Shown in pieces: positions 3,818-53,332 of a DNA stretch of 64,000 nucleotides. Position 1 is the first letter of the stretch. Every line of letters begins with the position of its first letter. Source of the stretch: Nitrosopumilus sp. Lineage in GTDB: Archaea; Thermoproteota; Nitrososphaeria; Nitrososphaerales; Nitrosopumilaceae. Under the pieces are notes generated by a model that had not been told where the DNA came from, did not search any database, and saw only the letters and a list, made by a program, of their open reading frames with translations. The translations under genes were made by a program, and so were the position numbers. The stretch is from NCBI GenBank assembly GCA_965204345.1, contig OZ241981.1:1088001-1152000 (forward strand). The letters run 5' to 3'.

Positions 3818-4231
3818 TTAGTCTGCCCATTCAAGTTTGGACATTGAGAAAGTGTATAATTCTATGTTAGGATATCTTTCAGTTAAAGCATCTTTAACAT
3901 TAGATAATTCCTCATAATATACTTCATCATTAATTTCTACCCATAATCCATCCTGATCTGGATCATTTGGCATGGATGGTATACCCATCAAATTGATTGG
4001 AGCTCGATCAAAAACATTTACCAAGTCATCATCTGAAGTCAGAGTACCACTCATAATTTCACGTAATGTTGACTCGGCTAGTTCTAATTCATTAGTTATG
4101 CTAGCTGGTTCTAGTTCATCAGGAAAATTTTCTTGTCCTGGTACCGTTTGTGTCATTGCCACTGCTGGTATCAGCATAAGCATAGCTATTGAAGTCATTA
4201 TTATCGTTTTTCTAATCACTGAAGGATTCAT
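3818..4231 (-). CDS. Hypothetical secreted acidic protein (ORF open to 4288; likely start 4231)
   Basis: Signal-peptide-like MNPSVIRKTIIMTSIAMLMLIPAVA followed by an acidic domain. Confidence 0.5.
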   Translation of the reverse strand: MNPSVIRKTIIMTSIAMLMLIPAVAMTQTVPGQENFPDELEPASITNELELAESTLREIMSGTLTSDDDLVNVFDRAPINLMGIPSMPNDPDQDGLWVEINDEVYYEELSNVKDALTERYPNIELYTFSMSKLEWAD

Positions 4232-4572
4232 TATAATTATAGGCCGTATATCTGCATGTAAATCAGCGTAACGGTTTAGGTTAGGCATGAGTCCTAGATT
4301 GGTTCAAGCATAGATTTTGATCTCTGAGAATGGTGAACCTAACCTCATACAAATTGGCAGTATTTGTCTTATCCAAAGACTAGTTTGCTAATTCATGGGA
4401 CATCTTTATCCATTTTGGGTTGTTTTTTTTTGGGTTGCAGAAGAGGATCTCTTTGTTCCTAAATGCCTTGATGATTTCCAGTCAAATCTTGGACTTGAAA
4501 TAATCCCCAGCCCAACCCTGAACTTGTCAATCTTTAGTGTGGCAGAATTTCTGCATATTGGCATGCTGCACG

Positions 4573-5052
4573 CTACTTTGCACGGTTCTTTATCCGCCTT
4601 TCCATTCTGACTTTGCCCTCCTCGAACTTTGCCCTGTCCTCGTCTGTCTTGAGGGACATCTTGGGGACATGAAGCGGCTTTCCCTCTCCGTCTAGCGCTA
4701 CAAAGGTCACAAACGCTGTGCCGGTCTTGGTTTTTATTCCAGTTACAATGTCTTCTGCCTCTGCCCCTACCTCGATCTCCATTGACGAGTTGTGGACATA
4801 GTTTATCCTGGCATCAAGTCTCAGGACGTTGCCGACAAATACCGGCTTGAGAAAGTTCACACTGTCCATGCAAACGGTGACAGCGTTTGACTGCGAGTGT
4901 CGCTGGGCGACAATCCCGGCAACCATGTCTATATGCTTGAGTATTTCGCCTCCAAACACGTTTCCAGCAGGGTTTGCATCGGAGGGAAACATTCTTACAA
5001 TTACCTCGGCATGCGATTCTGAGGGACTCTTTTCAAGGCTATTCGTAACCAT
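4573..5052 (-). CDS. Acyl-CoA thioesterase (hotdog fold, YciA-like)
   Basis: DANPAGNVFGGEILKHID motif; FLKPVFVG; FVTFVALD. Confidence 0.92.
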   Translation of the reverse strand: MVTNSLEKSPSESHAEVIVRMFPSDANPAGNVFGGEILKHIDMVAGIVAQRHSQSNAVTVCMDSVNFLKPVFVGNVLRLDARINYVHNSSMEIEVGAEAEDIVTGIKTKTGTAFVTFVALDGEGKPLHVPKMSLKTDEDRAKFEEGKVRMERRIKNRAK

Positions 5053-5098
5053 GATACACCCAAATGTATCCCATCCAATTTAATCTAAACATTTGCCG

Positions 5099-6439
5099 CT
5101 ATTTCCCGATGTACTTGTTCAAGTCAATCCTGTCCATTTTAGGAATCCTTGCGAGCTCAAACCCCTCGGGTCTCTTTGAGAGAGGCCGCGTCGCATCAAT
5201 GCCCATCTTTGCAGTTTGTAATTTCTGCTGGTTGCTAGAAGGATCCAGACTAGAACCGCGAACGTTTTTGATAATAACAAGATCCTTATCAGCTTGAAAT
5301 CGTGTAGCCATAGCATATTCTACAGATTCTGCATTATTGGGATCTATATCTTCATCAACTACAGTTACCTGTTTTAGTGAACGGTGTGATTCAAAGGTTT
5401 TTTTAATAATTTTTTTAGGATCAGAATTGTTTTTCTTTTTGATTTGTACAACAGCATGTAGCCAATTACACCCACCATTAGTCATTGAAACCTGTATTGT
5501 TTGCGAAAACGATTTTTTTAATTCCCCATTTAGTTTGGATTCAATTGGCATTCCCATTAGTAGTCGATGTTCTGAGAATCCTGAGAGAACATCATGGAAA
5601 ATTGGATCATTTCTAAAATATAGATTATCAAGTTCAAAGACAGGTTGAGACCTTTTGTGATCATATGTTTGAAGCATTTCTACCATCCATTCAGGATGAG
5701 TTTTATCCTGGAGTATTCTGCCCTCCATTACAATCTCAGAACCAGATGGAACATTTAATCCTGTAAATGGTAATTTTGCTAAAGTTAATTTTCCACCCAA
5801 AAGGGAATTTGCTATATCGATTTCATCCTTTCCCCAATCAGCTTGATATGCACCAGCAATGGATATGGCTGGATGTACACCAACAGTAATAGCAATTTTT
5901 AGATCTTGACCATGTTCTTTGGCATCAGTAAAACATCTGTGCAAATGACGACCTTCAACCATTCTTATGGAAAAATGAGTTTTGTCAATTGGCATCATTC
6001 TATGAAAGGATGAATTTTGTTTTCCTGTTTCTGGGTTTTTTGCATATGCAATAGATGATGTGATGAATGGACCAGATTCTTTTTCAAAATGAGTTACTAT
6101 AGGCATGGAAAATATGTCTTTTGACTGATTTTCCATAAATTTTCCTGATGATATGATCTTGGGTTTTTTGGCCTGTTTAATTGCAGAAATGACTTTTTTG
6201 TGAATATTGAATTCTGAGCCTCCAACTGCAATACCAAATCGCTTTCTAGTTCCAACAAGATTGGCAATTAATTTAAAATTACTTTCTTTGATATTTTCAA
6301 ATAATACAGCATTAGAGCCGTCAACTTTTGCAGTGATCCCGGCAATTTCATATTTGGTTGAAACCCTAGTTCTTACAGTTTTAAGTTCGTGAATTTTTTT
6401 AATTTGGGAAATGTAGCTCCTTAAATCACTCATTCTCAA
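5099..6439 (-). CDS. ubiD: UbiD-family prFMN-dependent decarboxylase (in archaea often anhydromevalonate phosphate decarboxylase)
   Basis: SFHRM, VPSGSEIVMEG, VTVVDEDID, GSSLDPS and KMGIDAT motifs. Confidence 0.9.
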   Translation of the reverse strand: MRMSDLRSYISQIKKIHELKTVRTRVSTKYEIAGITAKVDGSNAVLFENIKESNFKLIANLVGTRKRFGIAVGGSEFNIHKKVISAIKQAKKPKIISSGKFMENQSKDIFSMPIVTHFEKESGPFITSSIAYAKNPETGKQNSSFHRMMPIDKTHFSIRMVEGRHLHRCFTDAKEHGQDLKIAITVGVHPAISIAGAYQADWGKDEIDIANSLLGGKLTLAKLPFTGLNVPSGSEIVMEGRILQDKTHPEWMVEMLQTYDHKRSQPVFELDNLYFRNDPIFHDVLSGFSEHRLLMGMPIESKLNGELKKSFSQTIQVSMTNGGCNWLHAVVQIKKKNNSDPKKIIKKTFESHRSLKQVTVVDEDIDPNNAESVEYAMATRFQADKDLVIIKNVRGSSLDPSSNQQKLQTAKMGIDATRPLSKRPEGFELARIPKMDRIDLNKYIGK

Positions 6440-6770
6440 TCATCTCCATAATCTCAGACATTAAGGCTTTTGCAGTATTAGGCTCTAAAGGCTTTTGAAT
6501 AAAAGTGGAAACTAATGAAATGCCTTTCATTCTGGTACTAATTCGTTCAGCTGTAAGTTTTAAAAAAAGGGCTTCGGATCTAGAGGGAATAATGGTAGTA
6601 GTAATAGGTGTAGGTCCAGTAGCTAAAGATACAACCATGGATCCTAACTTGTTAGAACCTTCAGTAACAGAAACAAAATATCCATTTTCAAATTTTTGAA
6701 TTTGTAAAGAAAAACTGCGACTCTCCAAACTTACCATTTTCTGGAAAAATCCATTTGGAGAGGTCAACAA
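6426..6770 (-). CDS. Conserved hypothetical protein, possibly proteasome assembly chaperone (PAC4)-like
   Basis: 114-aa beta/alpha protein with KLGSMVVSL motif; family assignment tentative. Confidence 0.55.
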   Translation of the reverse strand: MLTSPNGFFQKMVSLESRSFSLQIQKFENGYFVSVTEGSNKLGSMVVSLATGPTPITTTIIPSRSEALFLKLTAERISTRMKGISLVSTFIQKPLEPNTAKALMSEIMEMIENE

Positions 6771-6784
6771 GCTATGAACAAATC

Positions 6785-7255
6785 TTATGCTTTTATTGCT
6801 ATTGATTCACTAGTCTGGGAAGATACAACTTCAGTATTCTTCTTGCAATTCTTTGCATGTTTATCTGGATAAACAAAGAGTTTTTCACAATATTTGCATG
6901 GAGATTTTTCTTTAGTTTTTGCTTTGGATTTTATTGTTTTAGATTTAGCAGTTTTAGCTTTGGATTTAGCTTTGGATTTAGCTTTTGATCTGACTGCTAT
7001 TTCTTCAACTTTTGATTCAATTCCAGTAGCTGCTGCAGCTTCCATAGAATCAGCTTCAACTCTAGCGCGTAATTTTGCTTTGTATTTCAAATTACGTGGT
7101 TTTGTTCTTAATCTATACCCACAACATGGACACCAAAGTCCTTCCCATTTGATGAATATTTCACAAATTTGGCATCGACGTTGTCCAGAAGCGTATCTTC
7201 CAGTGCCAACAGGCTTTTGAGCCTTATATCTAACACAAATTCCTTTACAAGTCAT
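6785..7255 (-). CDS. Cys-rich Zn-finger protein with Lys/Ala-rich tail and second CxxC/HxxxC finger
   Basis: CKGIC, CQIC, CPCC; KAKSKAKSKAKTAK; CKYC...HAKNC. Confidence 0.8.
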   Translation of the reverse strand: MTCKGICVRYKAQKPVGTGRYASGQRRCQICEIFIKWEGLWCPCCGYRLRTKPRNLKYKAKLRARVEADSMEAAAATGIESKVEEIAVRSKAKSKAKSKAKTAKSKTIKSKAKTKEKSPCKYCEKLFVYPDKHAKNCKKNTEVVSSQTSESIAIKA

Positions 7256-7605
7256 CTTGGTACCATATTATAGAATTCATAACTATATAAGCATGGATCG
7301 ATAAAATCTATATAAAATTGTAAGAAAAGTTGAAAAAAATAGATCATATATGCCGATTAAAATTATTATTTTCAAATAAAACCATAAAATCATCAATAAA
7401 TATGTATAGCTTATTTCAAAACAATATTTTATGAAAAATTAACAGGTAGTAATATAGTTGTTTGATAAATTATTTCATTTTTTTAAAAGAAAATAATGAA
7501 AAATTAGAATATTCTCATACTTTTACTATTATTAGCCGAATACAAAATTAGAAAGTTTCTAAAATAGACTTAGGTTTAATCATTTTTTGTCATAATAAAC
7601 AAAAT

Positions 7606-8259
7606 TCATCCCGTAATTGACAAAGGAAGAATTGAATGTCTGTATCCATCCCGCTGAGAAATATATTTTGCAGAGAGCATATCACGTTTGCCTCCTTGAT
7701 TAAAATTTTTAATCTTTAAACTAGTTTTTCTTTCATCTACAAATTCTAGTTGAAATGATGAACAAAATTTTAGATTAAGCATTGTTACAATTTGTTTTGC
7801 AATAGCCATATTTCCATTTCCAATTTTTAGAATTCTTCTTTTAGCTCTGAGTCCGCCTAAAATTTGGATTATATGTAAAACTAATTTTTCAATTGAGGTG
7901 TGAACTGAGCTTTCAATTTCTGCTCCATAGTAAAATATTGATAAACCCATTCTTTGCCCAGGATCAATGCCCAAAATCAAATCTTCTTCTTCAAAATCTA
8001 GACCAATTTTTTGCAATATTATTCCTCTAATTACAGTGGGATGATATTGAAGAATATCATCATGAAATAAAATTTTCTTACATTTTTGAGGTGATTCTTT
8101 TTTGGTAGTAAATACTAGATGTCCGGAATAATCATGAATTTCTTCAGGTAGAATAGTATCAAAAGATAGATTAAGAGACTTGAGATATGTTGAAAATTTA
8201 TAGTATGGCTTACCATAAGCTGTAGCAAGTCCAATACGGAAATTTTGTAGGGGATCCAT
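7606..8259 (-). CDS. Hypothetical protein with C-terminal RNase H-like (YqgF/RuvC-like) domain
   Basis: LILGIDPG, IGNG, FVDERKTS and DMLSAKYI motifs. Confidence 0.65.
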   Translation of the reverse strand: MDPLQNFRIGLATAYGKPYYKFSTYLKSLNLSFDTILPEEIHDYSGHLVFTTKKESPQKCKKILFHDDILQYHPTVIRGIILQKIGLDFEEEDLILGIDPGQRMGLSIFYYGAEIESSVHTSIEKLVLHIIQILGGLRAKRRILKIGNGNMAIAKQIVTMLNLKFCSSFQLEFVDERKTSLKIKNFNQGGKRDMLSAKYISQRDGYRHSILPLSITG

Positions 8260-8289
8260 AACTAATAAAATGAAATATGGGATTTAGGT

Positions 8290-8625
8290 TTATGCTTTCA
8301 AAACAATTGACACCACATGTTTGACTGCCTCATCAAAATTAGTATCAATTCTAGATTGGATTTCAGATAGTTTTGCATCGCCTTCTTGAGCTATTTTTGC
8401 AGATTCAGCAGTTGCTTTATCTTTTGATGCATTGATAGCCACTTCAGCTTCTCTAGTAGCCATTTCTCTGGTTTTCTCCAACAAAATATCAATTTCTGAT
8501 TGAGTCTTTACAGATAGTTGTTTTTTTATATCCCCAACTTTACTGTTTAGGGAATCTAGATCATCCTCCAAAGCATTCAAGGATTTGATGATTCCCGTAA
8601 CTTTGGATTCGGCAACACTGCTCAT
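8290..8625 (-). CDS. Probable A/V-type ATP synthase peripheral-stalk subunit H (G)
   Basis: 111-aa coiled coil ending AESAKIAQEG...NFDEAVKHVVSIVLKA, as in archaeal subunit H. Confidence 0.6.
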   Translation of the reverse strand: MSSVAESKVTGIIKSLNALEDDLDSLNSKVGDIKKQLSVKTQSEIDILLEKTREMATREAEVAINASKDKATAESAKIAQEGDAKLSEIQSRIDTNFDEAVKHVVSIVLKA

Positions 8626-25091: not shown

Positions 25092-26210
25092 TTAATTTAC
25101 CATCTCAATTTGATTTTTAAATTCACTCCAACCAGATTTTGGATTACCGTTATTATTGATTAGACCAGCATTACAAATGTAGTTGCTTACTCTTTCAATT
25201 ACATGCTCACTGCTTCCAAAACCAGAGCCCCCCACCGTAAGAGTATCCTCGCCAATTTTGGGCGCTTCAACCATACAGGTTCCCTCAGGTCGATCGTACT
25301 GTCTATACCAAGTGAAAAATTCTATTTCAGACTCATTTTCGGCATAAAATTCAAAGGAATTTTCTAAAAACTCTGTTTGTTGAGATTCGCTTCCTTGAAC
25401 AAAATCAGACGTGCTCCAACTAATCTCAAAAAGTCCAATTTTTTTATCGCCTGCTAAAGCAAACATCTGTTGTAGATCCTCTTTTGCCTGTTCTGGAGTT
25501 TTGACAATTTCATTAAGACTGTCAACTGGAGAATAAGAAAATGCTATAAAATCACCCACAGATAACTCAGCAACAATATCTTGAAGATTTTTATTTAAAA
25601 CTTGATCCAATGCAAAAGCATTTCCTATTTTTACAGCAGGATGTTTTTCTTTTATTTTATCATAGACTCTATTGAAAAGTTCCTTGTATACAGGAATATT
25701 TTGCTCATAAAATCTGAATTGTGATTCTGTTTGACCTGCAAGAATTACAGTATCAACAATGTCATACCTTGATAATATCTCATCAAGTACAGTAACAATT
25801 CTATCCTCACCTATAGAATTAAGAGAAGGCTTGCCAATCCAATTGGGAAAGGGACCAAGTGTTTCACCGTTAATTATAGAAAAGTACAAAGTGACTTTGA
25901 GGTTATTTTTTTTATTAAAGCTCATTAATGCGTCTGATTGCTGCCAATCATATTCTCCGCGTACTGGTTCAACCAAATTCCAAAAGAGATAGACGTTGCT
26001 TCTTCCAATTCCCGCATCTGATGCTTGAGAATAAACTTGATCTAATTCTTGCAATGTAATAGATTGATTTGGAGAATTGATTACAAGGCCAATTTTTTCA
26101 TTAGGATATGAATTTGTAATAATGCCAGGATCAGATGGAATCATGACCAAATAAGATATTCCAATAATGACTGCTACGCATAAAATTATGCCTATTAGTT
26201 TTTTGTTCAT
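25092..26210 (-). CDS. Membrane-anchored glycoside hydrolase-like TIM-barrel protein
   Basis: N-terminal TM helix; FWNLVEPVRGEYDW, AFSY, LFEISWS, GLINNNGNPK typical of clan GH-A. Confidence 0.75.
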   Translation of the reverse strand: MNKKLIGIILCVAVIIGISYLVMIPSDPGIITNSYPNEKIGLVINSPNQSITLQELDQVYSQASDAGIGRSNVYLFWNLVEPVRGEYDWQQSDALMSFNKKNNLKVTLYFSIINGETLGPFPNWIGKPSLNSIGEDRIVTVLDEILSRYDIVDTVILAGQTESQFRFYEQNIPVYKELFNRVYDKIKEKHPAVKIGNAFALDQVLNKNLQDIVAELSVGDFIAFSYSPVDSLNEIVKTPEQAKEDLQQMFALAGDKKIGLFEISWSTSDFVQGSESQQTEFLENSFEFYAENESEIEFFTWYRQYDRPEGTCMVEAPKIGEDTLTVGGSGFGSSEHVIERVSNYICNAGLINNNGNPKSGWSEFKNQIEMVN

Positions 26211-26258
26211 ATATGAATTGGAAAAAAAAAGAAAGTAAAAAAGTTGTGATTCTGTTAT

Positions 26259-28910
26259 TTAACCAGAGGTACAACCGCTGTATCCACATTCAATGCACAT
26301 GCTGCAGCCCTCAACAAAGACAAGATTGTTTTTGCATGTCGGGCATAGACGATCTTCGGAAACCTCTTCAATTTTTGGAGGTTCTAATTGAATTTCTTCA
26401 TCGTGTACTTTTAATGCTAATGCAGCATCAACTTGAGATTTGATGTATGGATTTGTAATGTTTTTAGTTACAAATTCAGTCATATAGTCGCTTGGAGATA
26501 CTTCAAATGTTTTTGTTGCACTCTCGCTGGTCATGTGAAGAACTTGCTTGTGTCTTGAACCGTCACGATAAACAGTCATTCCCTTTAGACCGATTTCATG
26601 TGCAAGCAGATATGCAGACTTTACGTCTTCTACTGTTACATCATATGGCATATTGATTGTTTTTGCAATTGCATTTCCAATCCAGTCTTGCCACACACCC
26701 TGAGCCATTAAATGGTCAGCCCAGTGAATATCCATTGCCGTAACAAAGACATCTTGCATTTCTTGTGGAATTTCATCAATTCCTTTCAAGGAACCATAAT
26801 TATCTGCAATCTTTTCAAGAATTTCATCTGTGTAAAGATCTTTTTCTTTTAATGCTTCCTCAAGAATCTTGTTTGTGTAGAAGAATCTTCCAACAGTAAC
26901 TCTCTTTTCAAATACCAGAGCAAAGGCAGGTTCCATTCCGTTTGAACAGTCTGCAATCATAGAAAGTGTTCCAGTTGGAGCTACAGTAGTGGTTAGGACA
27001 TTTCTAATTCCATGTTTTTGGATTTTGTCAATGAGCGGATCCCATTCATAAGAATGAGAGTCTTTTGATTTCTCATAATATCCAGATACGGGAATCTTGC
27101 CTTCAGGATACTCTGTCTTTGAGCAAAGTGGGAATTCCCCACGGGCACTGGCTAGTGCAACACTTTCTTCCATTGAATAGTATGTCAAGGCTTCAGATAG
27201 TTTTGATTGGAGTTCATAGCCTTCCTTGGAATTGTATGGAATTTTTAGTCTATACAATAGATCAGCTACTCCCATGACGCCAAGCCCAATTCGTCTAGAT
27301 TCTTTTGAGGCCATATTGATTTCTTGTACCGGATAATTATTTACGTCAATGATATTATCCAAGAATCTGGTGGTTTTTCTAATAATTTCTTCATACCCTT
27401 GCCAATCAAATTCATAAGATCCATCTGCCTGTCTCTTTGCAAGATTTACCAGGTTGATAGAACCCAAATTGCAGGATTCGTATGGGTAAAGGCTTTGTTC
27501 GCCGCATGGATTGGTAGCTCTAAGCGGGGCTTGTCTTGCTTTGGCAAACACATTGTATTTGTTAATCTGATCAAAGAAGATCAACCCGGGTTCTGCACTC
27601 TTCCATGCAGACAATGCAATTAGATCAATTAGCTGGTGTGCGTTGATCTCTTTTACCGGTTTTTTATCACGTGGACTGCGTAAAATATAGTTGCCATCAG
27701 TTGTGTTGACAAGTGCATGCCAAAAATCCTCCCAAATGCCGACACTTATGTTGAAATTTTCTAAAACTCCAGCTTCTGTTTTGTTGGTGATGAATTTTTC
27801 CACATCGGGATGCCAAGCTTCTATAATTCCCATATTTGCACCACGTCTTTTACCGCCCTGTTTGACAACTTCAGTAACAGTATTGATGATGTTCATGAAA
27901 GATACAGGTCCGGATGCAACACCGGATGTAGATGCTACAATGTCGCCTTCTTCACGAAGATCAGAATAGTTAATTCCAACCCCGCCGCCGGATTTGAAGA
28001 TTAGCGCTGCATCAGAAGTAGATTTCATGATTTCTTCCATGCCATCGTTCATGCCAAGTACAAAGCATGCTGAAAGCTGTCCTAATCTTCCGCCTGCATT
28101 CATCATTGTTGGTGAGTTTGGTAGAAAGTCCTGGGCTGTCATCATTTCAAAGTATTCGGTTATTTTATCTGAGTAACTTTCTAATTTCTTTGCGGCCAGT
28201 AATGTCAAGAGACCTTTGAAACTTACTTTCATCTGACCTTTATTTGCAAGAGCTGCATAGTGGTTGATCAAAGCTCTAAAATGCCATTTGTTGAAGAAGT
28301 AATCTCCTACTTTGAATTTATAATCAAAGGCATCAAGTTTTTCAAGATAAGAATTTGCCTCATCTACATCTTGCTTGTTGTTCCCAGACTTGTCAAAAAT
28401 TTGAGAGTCATATAACATATCGCCGATTCCAACTAGGATTGCAACCCTTTCAAACATTTGAGTTGGAGACTCTGTAATCTCACTTTTGCTATTTCTGAAA
28501 AGATATCGTGATGCTAGAACTCTCAAACAGTTCAAATCAAATTTTTTAGAGACTGGATCAAGGACCTTGAGATTCAAGACCCTCATTTTTTCGTCTCTTA
28601 ATTTTCTTCTTTCATGCCTGTAAACGATGTATGCCTTTGCAATATCACTATTGCCGCTATCGATTAAAGTTGACTCTACAATGTCTTGAATATCTTCTAC
28701 CGTAGGTGATCTAGAGCTTGTAAATCCTTGCTCCACCAACTTGTTAACTACATCGTCTGCTAGTTTGTCGGCAACGCCACGATCGGCTTTGGAGGTGGCT
28801 GCCAGTGCCTGATAAATGGCATTTGAAATCTTATCTTTATTGAAAGCCGCTACTGCGCCACTGCGCTTGCGGATCTCATTGATCGTATTCTCTATTTGTG
28901 AATTGTCCAT
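26259..28910 (-). CDS. nrdJ: Adenosylcobalamin-dependent (class II) ribonucleotide reductase with N-terminal ATP cone
   Basis: PNSPT, QLSACF, QGGKRRGA, TNPCGEQ, SCNLGS, APTGT, KGMTVYRDGS, C-terminal Cys cluster; start 28910 has GGAG upstream (ORF open to 28997). Confidence 0.96.
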   Translation of the reverse strand: MDNSQIENTINEIRKRSGAVAAFNKDKISNAIYQALAATSKADRGVADKLADDVVNKLVEQGFTSSRSPTVEDIQDIVESTLIDSGNSDIAKAYIVYRHERRKLRDEKMRVLNLKVLDPVSKKFDLNCLRVLASRYLFRNSKSEITESPTQMFERVAILVGIGDMLYDSQIFDKSGNNKQDVDEANSYLEKLDAFDYKFKVGDYFFNKWHFRALINHYAALANKGQMKVSFKGLLTLLAAKKLESYSDKITEYFEMMTAQDFLPNSPTMMNAGGRLGQLSACFVLGMNDGMEEIMKSTSDAALIFKSGGGVGINYSDLREEGDIVASTSGVASGPVSFMNIINTVTEVVKQGGKRRGANMGIIEAWHPDVEKFITNKTEAGVLENFNISVGIWEDFWHALVNTTDGNYILRSPRDKKPVKEINAHQLIDLIALSAWKSAEPGLIFFDQINKYNVFAKARQAPLRATNPCGEQSLYPYESCNLGSINLVNLAKRQADGSYEFDWQGYEEIIRKTTRFLDNIIDVNNYPVQEINMASKESRRIGLGVMGVADLLYRLKIPYNSKEGYELQSKLSEALTYYSMEESVALASARGEFPLCSKTEYPEGKIPVSGYYEKSKDSHSYEWDPLIDKIQKHGIRNVLTTTVAPTGTLSMIADCSNGMEPAFALVFEKRVTVGRFFYTNKILEEALKEKDLYTDEILEKIADNYGSLKGIDEIPQEMQDVFVTAMDIHWADHLMAQGVWQDWIGNAIAKTINMPYDVTVEDVKSAYLLAHEIGLKGMTVYRDGSRHKQVLHMTSESATKTFEVSPSDYMTEFVTKNITNPYIKSQVDAALALKVHDEEIQLEPPKIEEVSEDRLCPTCKNNLVFVEGCSMCIECGYSGCTSG

Positions 28911-29112
28911 AATAATCTCCCCGCAAGGGTTAGAATCAATGATGATAAAAACTATTTGCCCGTTTTTCACAAAACTTCGGTAGAAAAAAATTGACAACGC
29001 TACTATGAAGTTAATATTGCAATAACATTAATCGTATTGGAATGATCGCAGTGTTCGAAACAGATCAGAAATAATTGAAAAATGATCGTAACTAGTTTTT
29101 CATTTATGAATT

Positions 29113-31278
29113 TCAGACAATGTAAGGTGACTTACATTTTGGGCACTTGTCTTCAAACGGTTCATCCTTAAAACCACATTCGCCACAAATTGTGGTATTT
29201 CTCATAGGCTTGAAGGAAGGCGTAAGTTCTGATGCTTTTTCGATAGATTTTTTGATTTCCTCTACCTTTGCTGCTTTATCAATCTCCAAAGTTACTAGTA
29301 ATCCACCATTAAGCAGTTTTGATAGTTTGTTACATTCAGAGATAGGCTCGGTTTTGTTGGTATAATTGGAGATTTCAGATGCATTTACAGATATGCCTTG
29401 AGAATAAAAATCAGCATCCATTGAATTTAGGGTGGAATTTTTGCCATATTTCTCTCCATCAAGGGTTGCAAAACGAGTAGAGCCTTCAGTTTCAGTCATA
29501 GAAATAGCCACCGTCTCGGATAATTCTTTACCTTTTTTGGCACCTACATCAACTGCTGTCTCAATGACTTTGTGTAAAATATCACGTCCCTCTTTGTTAT
29601 CTTGAAATCCAAGTATGTTAAACACTGCCTCTTTTAGTCCAACCAGATTAACAACGAGAGAGACTGAACTTTTTTGCATGTATTGAGTATTTTTTGCAAG
29701 AATTGGATTTAGTCCTCTTCTGGTTAGATCCGAAATCTCTTTTTTTCTTAATGCCATTGAAGCTAAAGCCGGTTTCATTAACAATGCAAGTCTTGCTCTA
29801 AAATAAGTCTCATCCTTATTGGATTCAAAAGCCAATCTTGGAAGATTGATCGAAACAGATTGTAATGCAATTGAGAGTGGGCCCGATGCTTTAGTAGTGC
29901 CATTAGTAATACCATGGCTAGAAGTCTGTCCTTTAGCAAACATGACTTTTCCACCAAGGGAAATTATTTCAGATACTGCCTGGGATACATCAGTTATTTT
30001 TCCTTTAGAAGTATCAATTATCAAACCAATCTTTGGTATTGGCGTAATCTTTGTATAATTTTTGTATGCAGCAATAATCGAATTAATAATTTTTGTATCA
30101 GTTCCTAATTGCAAGTGAATTGAAATATTCGTACTAGTTTTGTTATATTTAGAAGTGGTTGATGCAGTTGCAAAAGCATTGGTTAATTTTTGTTCAAGAT
30201 CCAGAAGAGATTTTGAATGTTTTGTAAATAATGAGACTAGTCCATTAAGTACAACTTCTTGTGAGGCTTCTTTTGAAAGAAGTGAGATAACCACAGATAG
30301 TGAACTTGTAATCTCGTCTAGTTGTTTTGATGCGGGAATTCTTGATACATCAAGGTATTTTCCACCAAGATCAATTCCATTATCAATTAATTCTTTAATG
30401 TTAACAAATATTGTATCAGGAATCATGGACCAAATTCCAGGATTGGTAATATGTAGATCTCCAGAAAGATGAGAGTCTGCTACGTCTTTAGGTAAAATAT
30501 TTGTAAGAAGATGCTCAGCGAATACTTTTTGTCCTGTATTAAACAAAAGACCTTCAGCACCATTATCCACATTGTCTAAATTAGAAATCATCTCCTGAAC
30601 ATCATACACAGGCAGGCCTAGGCGTGCAAGTTTATTCCTATATTCTTCATGACCGTGTTCTAGCAGTACAGAATTGACCATTTCGCGGATTAATGCGCCT
30701 GTAAGGTATGTAGTCTGGTATTTGTAAATTCTGTTTTCTACTTCTTCAGTAATTTTTTGTGCCAATTCTAGAGGGAGGCTTCCTTCTCTTACTAGAGATT
30801 GAATAATTTTATGTGAATTAAACTCCTCAATTGATTCAGAAGATGTTCTAACATACATTTTTCCACTTTCAATAATTGATCGTTCTTCAATTTGTCTTGC
30901 TAAACTTAGGACGAGTTTTCCAAGATTTGTAATTGTGTATCGTCTTTCAGATTTATTGAGTGCAACAAGCGATTGTCTAAGTAGTTTCCTCAAGTGATAT
31001 GCAAATTTGCCACTTTCTTTTTTTGATTTAAAGCCAGCCAGAGACTTTAGTTCAGAATAAGTCAATGGGCCTTTGGAATTTAAAATTCTCAAAATATCAA
31101 TTCTGTTGGGGCTTGCCATAACAGAAAAGATCATTCTAACACGTTTTGATGTAGATTGTAAAATGCCACCTCTTTGAGATTCTGAATCAGAATCCAAATC
31201 CTCGTCTATATCTTCATCCAAGTCAGAGTCTATATCTGCATCCATATCTAGTTCTAACTCCTCTTTACTTAGTTTCAT
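29113..31278 (-). CDS. ArsR-type wHTH + ATP cone + degenerate class III RNR (NrdD)-like fusion
   Basis: SPNRIDIL...FAYHLRKL HTH; VRTS...EEFNSHKIIQSL ATP cone; SHLSGDLHI, SINLPRLA and C-terminal CGEC..CPKC, with no glycyl-radical RxxGY. Confidence 0.85.
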   Translation of the reverse strand: MKLSKEELELDMDADIDSDLDEDIDEDLDSDSESQRGGILQSTSKRVRMIFSVMASPNRIDILRILNSKGPLTYSELKSLAGFKSKKESGKFAYHLRKLLRQSLVALNKSERRYTITNLGKLVLSLARQIEERSIIESGKMYVRTSSESIEEFNSHKIIQSLVREGSLPLELAQKITEEVENRIYKYQTTYLTGALIREMVNSVLLEHGHEEYRNKLARLGLPVYDVQEMISNLDNVDNGAEGLLFNTGQKVFAEHLLTNILPKDVADSHLSGDLHITNPGIWSMIPDTIFVNIKELIDNGIDLGGKYLDVSRIPASKQLDEITSSLSVVISLLSKEASQEVVLNGLVSLFTKHSKSLLDLEQKLTNAFATASTTSKYNKTSTNISIHLQLGTDTKIINSIIAAYKNYTKITPIPKIGLIIDTSKGKITDVSQAVSEIISLGGKVMFAKGQTSSHGITNGTTKASGPLSIALQSVSINLPRLAFESNKDETYFRARLALLMKPALASMALRKKEISDLTRRGLNPILAKNTQYMQKSSVSLVVNLVGLKEAVFNILGFQDNKEGRDILHKVIETAVDVGAKKGKELSETVAISMTETEGSTRFATLDGEKYGKNSTLNSMDADFYSQGISVNASEISNYTNKTEPISECNKLSKLLNGGLLVTLEIDKAAKVEEIKKSIEKASELTPSFKPMRNTTICGECGFKDEPFEDKCPKCKSPYIV

Positions 31279-31396
31279 TGTTGTCTCTAAAATTAAGGAG
31301 TAAATAAGACTTATGACTAGATCAAATTTGATAGTTTTCAATCAAAATATTCTTGAAAATGTAAAAATGATCTTTGAACATGATCATTTTCTTAGA

Positions 31397-31558
31397 TTAG
31401 TTTTCTTGGACATCTAATGAAAACTCTGATGTTGAAAGTTTTTGTCCACATGATGGACATTTTCCATTTGATGGATTAAGAACATCCTTTAGAGATTTTA
31501 ACATTTTCATGTTTGTGATCTTTTCTCCACATTTACCACATGTAATTTCTACTGACAT
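31397..31558 (-). CDS. Small CPxCG-type Zn-ribbon protein (53 aa, absent from ORF track)
   Basis: Manual translation MSVEITCGKCGEKITNMKMLKSLKDVLNPSNGKCPSCGQKLSTSEFSLDVQEN*. Confidence 0.8.
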   Translation of the reverse strand: MSVEITCGKCGEKITNMKMLKSLKDVLNPSNGKCPSCGQKLSTSEFSLDVQEN

Positions 31559-31628
31559 AAAGATGATCAGGCATACAAAATAATTAAGAAGGGATTTTGA
31601 ATTTATTTAATAATTCAAACAAATTATT

Positions 31629-51900: not shown

Positions 51901-52830
51901 CTAAAACCCATTTTCATTTAGAGTCATACCTAGTAAAGCAGCACGTGTGTATTTTCCATATTCTGCTTGCTGAAAATATTTGGCATTCTTAGTATTGTCA
52001 ACATCAGCAGAGATTTCATCTATTCTTGGTAACGGATGTAAAATTATCGAATCGTCTTTCATTCTTTGTAACATATCTAATCCAACAACATAGCTTCCTT
52101 TCACTTTGAGATATTCTTCCTCATCAGGGAATCTTTCTTTTTGAATTCGTGTCACATAAAGAACATCAAGATCATCTAGATGTTCTTCGATATCAGTAGT
52201 TTCTGTAAAATCTAATCTTTTTTTAATTTCATAAGTTGAGTCAGATCTGATTCGTAATGATTCAGGAGAAATTAGTTTAACATCGACATCATAGTTACCA
52301 AGTCCATAAAGCAGAGAATATACTGTTCGTCCATACTTTATATCACCGACTATGCCAATTTTAAGGCCATCAATCTTTTTCTTTTCTTTTTTAATTGTAA
52401 ACAAATCTTGAATCGCCTGAGTTGGATGTTCTTCGGTTCCACTTCCTGCATTGATGACAGGTTTATCAGAAATTTCTGCTGCAAATCTGCTTGAACCATC
52501 CAAGGTATGACGTAATACTAGCACATCAGAATAAATTGACATTATTCTAACAGTGTCTGCAAGACTCTCACCCTTTTGAGTAGAAGAAGACGAGATATCA
52601 GAAATTCCTAGAGAATTACCACCAATAGAGGCCATGGCAGAATCAAAACTTAGGCGAGTCCTAGTACTTGGCTCATAAAACAGATATCCCAAAGTCTTTC
52701 CTTTGCAGATATCTCTTCTATCAGCAGAGTTTAGCTGCATAATTTTGTCAGTAGAGCTGAAGATTGTTTCTAACTGGTCTTTGGTATAGTCTTTAATTGA
52801 TATGATATCCTTTTGGTAAAACTCGTTCAT
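51901..52830 (-). CDS. pyrB: Aspartate carbamoyltransferase catalytic subunit
   Basis: FYEPSTRTRLSF, KGESLADT, EHPTQ, HPLPR. Confidence 0.97.
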   Translation of the reverse strand: MNEFYQKDIISIKDYTKDQLETIFSSTDKIMQLNSADRRDICKGKTLGYLFYEPSTRTRLSFDSAMASIGGNSLGISDISSSSTQKGESLADTVRIMSIYSDVLVLRHTLDGSSRFAAEISDKPVINAGSGTEEHPTQAIQDLFTIKKEKKKIDGLKIGIVGDIKYGRTVYSLLYGLGNYDVDVKLISPESLRIRSDSTYEIKKRLDFTETTDIEEHLDDLDVLYVTRIQKERFPDEEEYLKVKGSYVVGLDMLQRMKDDSIILHPLPRIDEISADVDNTKNAKYFQQAEYGKYTRAALLGMTLNENGF

Positions 52831-52870
52831 TCTTTCAATAATATATACAGGTGCTATACAAAGTATTCTG

Positions 52871-53332
52871 ATGGAGCAGTCCGACCTTATGGTTCGACGA
52901 ATTAAGGAAGGTACTGTAATTGACCATATTGATGAAGGAAAAGGTCTTCAGGTACTTGGTGCATTAAGAATCAATGGTGATGACGGAAGTTTAATCACAA
53001 TAGCCTTGAATGTTCCAAGTGGAAAATTTAAGAAAAAAGACATTATCAAAGTGGAAAACAAGTTTCTAAAAGATGATGATACAAACAAGCTTGCAGTCAT
53101 TGCGCCAAAGGCAACAATCAACATGATTAAAGAATACAAGTTAGTAGAAAAGAGGAGAGTTTCATTACCTAATGAAATTGATAGAATTTTTAGATGTTCA
53201 AATCCAGACTGCATTACAAACAGTACAGAACACATTGAATCAGTAATGGATGTTATTGATAAGGAAGGACGGGTGTTAAAATGCAGATATTGTGGAAGGG
53301 TTTTAGATGTAAACCAACTAAAATATAATTAA
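52871..53332 (+). CDS. pyrI: Aspartate carbamoyltransferase regulatory subunit
   Basis: IKEGTVIDHI, KKDIIKVE, CSNPDCITN, CRYC. Confidence 0.96.
   Translation: MEQSDLMVRRIKEGTVIDHIDEGKGLQVLGALRINGDDGSLITIALNVPSGKFKKKDIIKVENKFLKDDDTNKLAVIAPKATINMIKEYKLVEKRRVSLPNEIDRIFRCSNPDCITNSTEHIESVMDVIDKEGRVLKCRYCGRVLDVNQLKYN

Follow-up and report, generated by a model that had tools for sequence, protein, structure and literature searches.

A winged helix fused to a dead class III ribonucleotide reductase beside nrdJ in Nitrosopumilus: a candidate nucleotide-sensing transcription factor

To our knowledge, little has been established about how archaea control the supply of deoxyribonucleoside triphosphates (dNTPs) at the level of transcription. 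For the bacterial regulator NrdR, the ATP/dATP state is reported to govern transcription of ribonucleotide reductase (RNR) genes, and NrdR is described as rare in archaea (PMC9110341, in part). RbkR, an archaeal riboflavin kinase fused to a winged helix, is bifunctional and still an enzyme (PMC5397151, in part). The class III RNR NrdD of P. copri requires a radical Gly (Gly711) in a C-terminal domain that follows the Zn site, an initiator Cys (Cys416) that sits on a loop through the barrel and a second Cys, borne by the first beta-strand (Cys171), and it bears Asn435 on the sixth strand (PMC11226230, in part). Here we compare with these systems a gene located at positions 29113 to 31278, on the minus strand, of a 64,000-nucleotide stretch of Nitrosopumilus sp. 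DNA (assembly GCA_965204345.1, contig OZ241981.1, positions 1,088,001 to 1,152,000; hereafter the window), which encodes a helix-turn-helix (HTH) domain fused to an NrdD-like body and is referred to below as HTH-NrdD.

HTH-NrdD resembles the NrdDs of T4, T. maritima, P. copri and S. thermophilus in its homologous ATP-cone, 10-stranded barrel and Zn ribbon, in conserving the HxSGxxH motif and the Asn of 'NLPR', and in a predicted dimer that forms through the N-terminal helices of the core. It differs from them in lacking the glycyl-radical loop, the finger-loop Cys, the beta-A Cys and an activase, and in possessing an added N-terminal winged helix. With NrdR it shares a DNA-binding module, an ATP-cone and a gene that adjoins RNR genes, and an ATP/dATP control logic is proposed here by analogy. 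In contrast to NrdR, which consists of an N-terminal Zn ribbon and an ATP-cone and measures about 150 residues, HTH-NrdD has an ArsR-like winged helix, and its Zn ribbon, which derives from NrdD, sits at the C-terminus; the protein is about 5 times the size of NrdR, contains a whole dead RNR body and is non-homologous outside the cone. Like RbkR (PMC5397151, in part), it joins a winged helix to an enzyme domain from metabolism, has its gene close to the pathway that it presumably controls and is found in the same archaeal groups; unlike RbkR, its enzyme part is dead, is of the radical-enzyme type and spans about 490 residues. As to the ArsR/SmtB family, the HTH matches PF12840 and is weakly similar in structure to SmtB and ArsR, but unlike those stand-alone proteins of about 100-120 residues it is joined to a cone and an RNR body, and it has no evident metal-sensing sites. 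The full-text literature outside subscription journals and supplements yielded no account, for these archaea, of an NrdD that is HTH-fused or glycyl-radical-less, and a term search of the RNR phylogeny papers PMC9531940 and PMC3019208 (in part, supplements likewise outside the scope) found none. The family thus appears to be undescribed as an enzyme-derived, ligand-sensing regulator, and is a putative functional analogue of NrdR.

HTH-NrdD is a pseudoenzyme: all three elements of the radical chemistry and the activase are missing. We lean towards the view that it serves as a homodimeric, one-component, nucleotide-sensing transcription factor for RNR and pyrimidine genes, NrdR-like in function; we infer its DNA binding, ligand, direction of regulation and regulon, and dimer formation is predicted from a structure model. 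In the mechanism that we propose, the N-terminal ArsR-like winged helix would bind DNA, and the NrdD-like core would form a symmetric homodimer, as in real NrdD, with the two winged helices positioned for a two-part operator. The ATP-cone would report the cellular ATP/dATP state, remnant RNR specificity or substrate sites may contribute to sensing, and nucleotide binding would alter conformation or oligomeric state and, hence, DNA binding. Transcription of the adjacent nrdJ would be tuned in this way, and probably that of pyrBI/pyrH and of the HTH-NrdD gene itself. If this is true, a whole radical enzyme with its allosteric sites has been turned into the ligand-sensing module of a transcription factor. 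The family is a concrete candidate for the control of archaeal dNTP supply; ammonia-oxidizing archaea and Bathyarchaeia are two of the most abundant archaeal groups.

The gene is an intact open reading frame (ORF) encoding 721 residues plus stop. A mechanical reading carries the ORF on as far as a TTG (31341). We take the ATG at 31278 as the likely start, since it matches the start codon of 26 related loci and a promoter-like block lies ~20-40 nt upstream. These loci come from the 26 other genomes of the window's family, which with the window's own genome make 27; our sample of the phylum comprised 201 genomes. The gene and its parts are as follows.

29113..31278, minus strand: whole gene, HTH-fused catalytically dead NrdD paralogue (ORF, Pfam, NCBIfam, AlphaFold2 model, class III RNR fold)
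31162..31278, minus strand: acidic disordered N-terminal tail, residues 1-39, lineage-variable (predicted local distance difference test, pLDDT, <50; 26% mean family identity)
30874..31161, minus strand: ArsR/SmtB-like winged helix-turn-helix, residues 40-135 (HTH_20, DUF7347; weak SmtB/ArsR matches in the PDB)
30583..30867, minus strand: ATP-cone of a divergent 'VRTS' type, residues 138-232 (PF03477)
29209..30582, minus strand: NrdD-like 10-stranded barrel core without the radical residues, residues 233-690 (alignment with genuine NrdDs; profile alignment to P. copri NrdD)
29116..29208, minus strand: C-terminal Zn ribbon (C698, C701, C712, C715) with no glycyl-radical loop after it (sequence; alignment)

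The winged helix scored 40.7 bits with DUF7347 and 32.6 bits with HTH_20 (PF12840; cut-off 27) in Pfam, over residues 50-124, and 24.3 bits with the NCBIfam ArsR model NF033788, below its cut-off of 55; it matched SmtB and ArsR structures in the PDB weakly (E 0.4-0.7), and no metal- or metalloid-sensing cluster of Cys or His was evident by eye in residues 40-135. The ATP-cone reached 35.4 bits against a Pfam cut-off of 25.8 (PF03477, residues 141-213), and its 'VRTS' type is also found in genuine NrdDs of the phylum. The body scored 98.5 bits with NRDD (PF13597), the best stretch (residues 466-717) covering profile positions 275-529 of 562, and 94.5 bits with the NrdD equivalog TIGR02487 of NCBIfam, for which the cut-off is 326.35 and the model is matched no further than position 548 of 581. 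Its motifs are SHLSGDLHI (269-277), SSHGI (453-457), SINLPR (476-481) and CxxC-x10-CxxC (698-715); C649 is the sole Cys outside the Zn ribbon, and the last residue, V721, lies 6 residues past the fourth Zn cysteine, C715. The acidic stretch at residues 10-34 is real, has a pLDDT below 50 and is missing from many orthologues. An initial annotation of this DNA, made by a model from the letters, had proposed the same coordinates, the order acidic tail, ArsR-like winged helix, ATP cone, NrdD-like barrel and Zn ribbon, the motifs just listed, and a chain that ends right behind the ribbon with no RxxGY loop; all of this agreed with the orthologue starts, Pfam, the structure model and the residue numbering. 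Proteins 86-99% identical to HTH-NrdD are assigned to Nitrosopumilus in their source records. Database names for such proteins vary, from 'anaerobic ribonucleoside-triphosphate reductase' to 'ArsR family transcriptional regulator' and 'helix-turn-helix domain-containing protein', and on account of the first of these names metabolic reconstructions can wrongly credit aerobic nitrifiers with an anaerobic dNTP pathway.

The structure was predicted with AlphaFold2 (AF2) from an alignment of 75 rows, composed of 69 HTH forms and 6 non-HTH NrdD-like proteins. The model had a pLDDT of 89.9 and a predicted template modelling score (pTM) of 0.83, with disorder limited to residues 1-37. Class III RNRs headed the Foldseek comparison with the PDB (E 1e-20 to 1e-12, template modelling (TM) scores 0.5-0.65): the top 34 matches were all class III, S. 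thermophilus 9dca (1.4e-20) being the best and P. copri, T. maritima and T4 following, and class I RNRs appeared only at about 1e-6. The 10-stranded alpha/beta barrel of the RNR/glycyl-radical enzyme type is therefore present by AF2, Foldseek and PF13597. With the single sequence as query, phmmer shows a very distant relation to the solved NrdDs (E 0.06 for T. maritima NrdD), and the family profile matches NrdDs of the PDB at 1e-48 to 1e-39. When two copies of residues 233-721 were folded together, the symmetric homodimer scored 0.80, compared to 0.00 for the best of 3 controls; contact agreement between runs was at least 93%, partner pLDDT was at least 83, and the predicted interface was formed by helices 237-253, 305-337, 363-378 and 408-416. 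Of proteins solved as one-chain pairs, 20 of 30 reach the mark used for this score, compared to 1 of 23 among those solved as single chains; since NrdD dimers are already solved, passing it may reflect likeness and not binding.

Catalytic positions were assigned by alignment to five genuine NrdDs of the same phylum and cross-checked by profile alignment to the P. copri chain. The beta-A Cys (P. copri Cys171) is replaced by Thr289, the finger loop G/C-C-R corresponds to Gly456-Ile457-Thr458 with Ile457 at the Cys416 position, and Gly711 has no counterpart, as the chain has already ended. Asn435 is kept as Asn478, and the structural Zn site CxxC...CxxC is retained (C698, C701, C712, C715). In the genome, which is 99.74% complete, we found no second NRDD match, no match to the Gly_radical domain and no NrdG activase at the cut-off (best NrdG2 48.8 bits vs 131, NrdG 36.4 vs 126), the best radical-SAM ORF for the NrdG models being QueE-like; a genome search for a split glycyl-radical peptide returned only noise (E at least 0.16), plus two motif matches in stop-broken frames. 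These findings bear out the initial annotation, which had read SSHGI at the finger loop and had noted the absence of a Cys after the HI motif (here Ile457 and Thr289), had placed the one Cys outside the ribbon (C649) away from the expected sites, and had seen no nrdG in the window; the last point now extends to the whole genome, where both nrdG and a separate Gly-radical domain, which it had suggested be sought, were absent from the search results. Its residues and these searches leave HTH-NrdD unable to act as a ribonucleotide reductase through the known mechanism.

It might still be a reductase or another radical enzyme, with its radical supplied by a separate glycyl-radical peptide and an unrecognised activase. 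We consider this extremely improbable: although barrel, Zn ribbon and Asn478 are retained and databases use the name 'anaerobic ribonucleoside-triphosphate reductase', both needed cysteines are absent, that of beta-A in all 69 relatives, the genome searches yielded no NrdG, Gly_radical domain or split peptide, and the equivalog score (94.5 bits vs 326) is far below the cut-off. In addition, the organism has NrdJ, and we counted against an active enzyme that Nitrosopumilus is presumably an aerobe.

Constraint is unevenly distributed along the protein. Mean identities to the window's protein, within the family and to distant HTH forms respectively, were 99% and 32% for the winged helix, 93% and 51% for the ATP-cone, 78% and 23% for the first part of the core, 65-86% and 13-25% for the barrel segments, 63% and 27% for the Zn ribbon, and 26% and 2% for the acidic tail. 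This profile indicates that selection is strongest on the DNA-binding and cone modules. It also bears on the idea that the gene is a functionless, decaying relic of an anaerobic ancestor's nrdD, for which one can cite the strong divergence of the barrel from real NrdD (the phmmer E of 0.06 noted above) and the loss of the Zn ribbon in some orthologues. Against decay stand the intact frame in 26 of 26 family genomes at 62-88% identity, the conservation of HTH (99%) and cone (93%), the confident fold prediction, the metatranscriptome contigs that cover the gene, and the age and spread of the clade, and we give a relic next to no credence.

The family is broadly distributed. A protein search found HTH-NrdD matches in 153 of the 201 sampled genomes, Bathyarchaeia included, and all 26 other genomes of the window's family carry the gene with its reading frame intact. 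An HMMER search of cluster representatives returned 1261 proteins at E <=1e-3 and 190 at <=1e-30, while a pattern scan of GTDB genomes, built on a 12-row alignment, confirmed 571 of 600 candidate stretches, with Bathyarchaeia or Bathyarchaeota in the titles of 69 of the best 80 loci. Short forms of ~615-720 residues, like the window's protein, have source organisms listed as, for instance, Nitrosopumilus, Nitrososphaeraceae, Thaumarchaeota/Nitrososphaerota and Conexivisphaerales; long forms of ~740-800 residues, which retain a C-terminal extension past the Zn ribbon, predominate in the mostly Bathyarchaeia-titled loci and score 220-325 bits on TIGR02487, under the cut-off of 326. Among the 69 HTH forms of the 75-row alignment, the beta-A Cys is present in none and the finger-loop Cys in one, the conserved Asn in all and the four Zn cysteines together in 63; a Gly occupies the radical column in 13, as Gly-Tyr in just one. 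The beta-A Cys is present in all 6 non-HTH NrdD-like rows, including a degenerate one (L063, see below).

In a FastTree phylogeny of the region from cone to Zn ribbon, the 69 HTH forms make up one clade apart from the 6 non-HTH NrdDs (Shimodaira-Hasegawa-like support 100), within which the 30 short Nitrososphaeria-type forms are a single clade on a long stem, nested among the long forms; this tree is from FastTree only, with few outgroup rows and without bootstrap. Genuine NrdD exceeds the cut-off in 102 of the 201 genomes and in none of the window's family, and HTH forms commonly co-occur with it in the same genome. Because the HTH forms are a single clade, Cys-less but for the one finger-loop Cys and paired with real NrdD in many anaerobes, the HTH fusion and the loss of the radical Cys happened once, before the aerobic nitrifiers; the Nitrososphaeria branch later shed the C-terminal tail as well. 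As far as sequence comparison goes, the cysteine-less HTH-NrdD clade is old and widespread and is not a quirk of aerobes. The initial annotation had pictured a dead enzyme repurposed in an aerobic lineage: the pseudoenzyme stands, and the tie to an aerobic lifestyle does not, as all 69 HTH forms, long ones included, lack the beta-A Cys.

Several loci depart from this pattern. The Zn ribbon is gone in some orthologues in or near the window's family (L033, L034, L035; P0129-P0131, P0146, P0150), which measure 615-698 residues and end before the first CxxC, indicating that the ribbon is dispensable for the protein's role. At L063 (G004:C5), the ORFs at 4176-6083 and 6112-8427, both on the minus strand, are an HTH form followed by a tandem non-HTH NrdD-like gene of 635 residues, which keeps the beta-A Cys and has lost the finger-loop Cys and the radical Gly (GLR, AF); a genuine NrdD (573 bits) is encoded on another contig of that genome. 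Another genome of this genus carries, ~6 kb from the intact gene, a further winged-helix fragment (G012:C1:1091142-1091393) that is 92% identical to residues 40-123; TGA and TAG stop codons interrupt it, and it looks like a pseudogene remnant of a local duplication. Long HTH forms also occur in bacteria-titled metagenome-assembled genomes (MAGs) at L104, L112, L124 and L149 (Acidiferrales, Methylomirabilota, 'bacterium', Dormiibacterota); their identity to Bathyarchaeia forms is 58-59%, and these loci may be mis-binned archaeal contigs.

We turn to the genes around HTH-NrdD, the presumed target being the next gene downstream.

26259..28910, minus strand: nrdJ, B12-dependent class II RNR, presumed target gene (TIGR02504 711.6 bits; Ribonuc_red_lgC 483.9 bits)

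In 26 of the 27 family loci nrdJ lies directly downstream on the same strand, within the order thiolase - DUF35 - (small Zn-ribbon ORF) - HTH gene - nrdJ, and the synteny with nrdJ that the initial annotation had suggested checking thus holds in all but one locus of the family. NrdJ has an N-terminal ATP-cone of its own (76 bits) and ends in a CxxC-x11-CxxC tail similar to the Zn ribbon found in proteins of the NrdD type. The small ORF between the DUF35 and HTH genes (window 31397-31558, minus strand) encodes 53 residues with CxxC...CxxC and weak matches to DUF7837 and Zn_ribbon, and conservation of this coding sequence extends to most of the 26 family loci.

Beyond the family we fetched 40 distant loci, 38 of which contain an HTH form. 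Genuine NrdD is encoded immediately downstream on the same strand in 5 of the 38, 3 of them with a glutaredoxin or thioredoxin gene, and in a sixth (L063) the downstream non-HTH NrdD-like gene is itself degenerate. A nrdD, pyrB, pyrI or pyrH gene lies at most 3 genes away in 17 of the 38, from 13 family-level lineages; an identity check of the pyrH and pyrB genes showed three carbamoyltransferase neighbours to be argF, and these were left out of this count. Among the best 80 loci of the scan, mostly Bathyarchaeia-titled MAGs, pyrB is found within 6 kb in 51 and pyrI in 35. In the window itself, pyrB (minus strand) and pyrI (plus strand) occupy 51955-53308, diverge from a 46-bp spacer and lie 21 kb from the HTH gene. 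Different RNR classes thus adjoin the HTH gene, class III in some lineages and class II in the nitrifiers, which fits a regulator-target pair that outlives replacement of the target. Since the neighbours in other lineages are nrdD or pyrB/pyrI/pyrH, the likely regulon is nucleotide metabolism generally. The proposal of the initial annotation, a regulator of the adjacent nrdJ, accordingly survives in part: gene linkage and the conserved HTH and cone speak for it, while nrdJ as sole target does not agree with these neighbours.

An extension of this interpretation is that the ancient dead class III RNR clade is a master sensor of the nucleotide pool and a transcription factor across much of the phylum. 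It would sense ATP/dATP through the cone, and dNTPs or NTPs through the specificity and substrate sites that survive in the RNR body, coordinate the RNR gene (nrdJ or nrdD) with pyrBI/pyrH, and represent an independent invention of NrdR's job in which the enzyme's own allosteric machinery was recycled as the sensor. We regard this as a tentative possibility that we do not favour.

The distribution of NrdR is relevant here. Bacterial NrdR (TIGR00244) was found in none of the 27 family genomes, the window's included, and exceeds the cut-off in 8 of the 201 phylum genomes, in line with the general lack of NrdR in archaea stated in the initial annotation. All 8 are the sampled genomes of one family, f12, in which the bacterial-type NrdR lies within about 1 kb of genuine NrdD in at least 6 (G148:C2, G061:C3, G190:C96, G155:C48, G169:C172, G077:C46). 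These genomes also retain the HTH form, for which pyrB is the adjoining gene at L047, L071 and L078, the f12 loci that were examined. In f12, two regulators related to RNR seem to exist side by side.

An alternative is that HTH-NrdD is a nucleotide-binding pseudo-subunit acting mainly at the protein level: it would bind NrdJ or other enzymes of replication or nucleotide metabolism, or titrate them, or act as a dNTP buffer, the winged helix then serving protein contacts or non-specific tethering to DNA. Pseudoenzymes are often regulators of active paralogues, in anaerobic relatives the gene adjoins a real NrdD with the same type of cone, and the variable acidic tail could mimic DNA. On the other hand, this genome has no NrdD partner, NrdJ belongs to a different class, and conservation within the family peaks (99%) in the HTH, a domain of the ArsR/SmtB DNA-binding type. 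We judge a pseudo-subunit to be improbable.

Upstream DNA and transcripts were examined for traces of regulation by HTH-NrdD, with the following features on the window.

31299..31317, minus strand: conserved promoter-like block of the HTH gene, resembling a transcription factor B recognition element (BRE) and TATA box, GTCAyAAGTCTTAtTTAC (conserved across aligned family loci)
28911..29112, minus strand: intergenic region carrying T-runs past the HTH stop codon and the nrdJ promoter, with a TATA-like TTTTTATC and with GGGGAG immediately ahead of the ATG
28975..29009, minus strand: phylogenetic footprint TAGTAgCGkTGTCAA-N5-7-TTGAnC, candidate binding site (alignment of family loci)

The footprint lies upstream of the nrdJ TATA box, about 35-45 nt beyond the TATA-like box and GGGGAG, in otherwise variable DNA. 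It is recognisable by eye in about 20 of the 26 family loci, and a loose regular expression picked the aligned block in about 16 of 26. Other candidate operators were rejected: GATCATTTTT is found in both upstream regions and 36 times in the genome; GATC, at 3 per roughly 120-200 bp, places both regions only in about the top 3.5% of windows; and the palindrome ACGA-N4-TCGT is conserved in several relatives and not in this window. Nor did the nrdJ-upstream element serve as a genome-wide mark of a regulon: most of its 22 and 26 loose matches fell in coding sequence, and those in intergenic DNA, which precede genes for RDD, Zn-ribbon, plastocyanin-like and unknown proteins, are too few for a regulon. 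One loose match, GTTGTAAAATTAATTTTGA at G000:C1:1458977 (outside the window), lies 80 nt before a thioredoxin gene and is compatible with chance; thioredoxin is the usual reductant of class II RNRs. A k-mer search of 54 upstream regions from mostly Bathyarchaeia-titled loci recovered only the promoter GTTTAAAAAA...TTGTAG, and no shared motif was seen in the pyrB-pyrI intergenic region of the window.

Metatranscriptome contigs from 4 runs of 2 studies (at least 99% identity) cover the HTH gene (29043-31235) and nrdJ (26208-28908) separately, and none in those runs bridges 28909-29042 or 31236-31578, a weak hint that the two genes are on separate mRNAs. The coverage is consistent with transcription, although contigs prove neither this nor the separation of the mRNAs. 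Contig depths were 34-43 for nrdJ and 12-24 for the HTH gene, values that are unable to rank expression.

Several observations weigh against a nucleotide-sensing regulator of RNR and pyrimidine genes. With respect to gene order, synteny among relatives consists of non-independent samples, 21 of the 38 distant loci are devoid of nucleotide genes at a distance of up to 3 genes, and mevalonate-pathway genes are equally steady upstream, thiolase/DUF35 occurring in 26 of the 27 family loci and either thiolase/DUF35 or HMG-CoA reductase in 8 of the 38 distant ones. The arrangement in f12, NrdR by nrdD and the HTH form by pyrB, means that RNR control is not a universal role of HTH-NrdD. With respect to ligand binding, the cone is atypical, VRTS standing in place of the K-R-D/N-G hairpin, and therefore offers a counterpart for only one of the two basic P. 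copri hairpin residues (Lys7, Arg8); the s-site and loop 2 of NrdD aligned unreliably onto HTH-NrdD in the profile alignment to the P. copri chain. With respect to DNA, the right half of the nrdJ-upstream footprint is degenerate in this window, and no operator common to the nrdJ and HTH-gene upstream regions was found. Contigs from RNA libraries, finally, cannot exclude DNA carry-over.

Some of these points would suit a DNA-binding regulator whose NrdD body is a mere dimerisation scaffold or a sensor of something other than nucleotides, with a different regulon, for example the mevalonate/lipid genes directly upstream (those for thiolase, DUF35 and HMG-CoA synthase or reductase) or a wide range of genes. 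In its favour, 26 of 27 family loci place thiolase/DUF35 upstream on the strand of the HTH gene, thiolase/DUF35 or HMG-CoA reductase is at most 3 genes away in the 8 distant loci, which come from several families, the 21 distant loci are without a nearby nucleotide gene, and the atypical cone hairpin leaves ligand binding open. However, the ATP-cone is the part best conserved across the clade (51% to distant forms, compared to 13-25% for the barrel), which is unexpected for a mere scaffold, and all neighbours that differ between lineages are genes of nucleotide metabolism (nrdJ, nrdD, pyrBI, pyrH). The lack, in the metatranscriptome runs, of an RNA contig linking the HTH gene to the upstream thiolase operon argues weakly in the same direction. 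We consider a different regulon or signal unlikely, and retain the nucleotide-sensing transcription factor as our working interpretation.

A minor observation concerns the phylum's genuine NrdDs. Many of their matches in f6, f9 and other families are split within very long open frames of 1100-2800 residues (e.g. G039:C7, G006:C11, G071:C56, G041:C35), where the cut-off is exceeded together with neighbouring matches of the frame, which suggests large in-frame insertions such as inteins.

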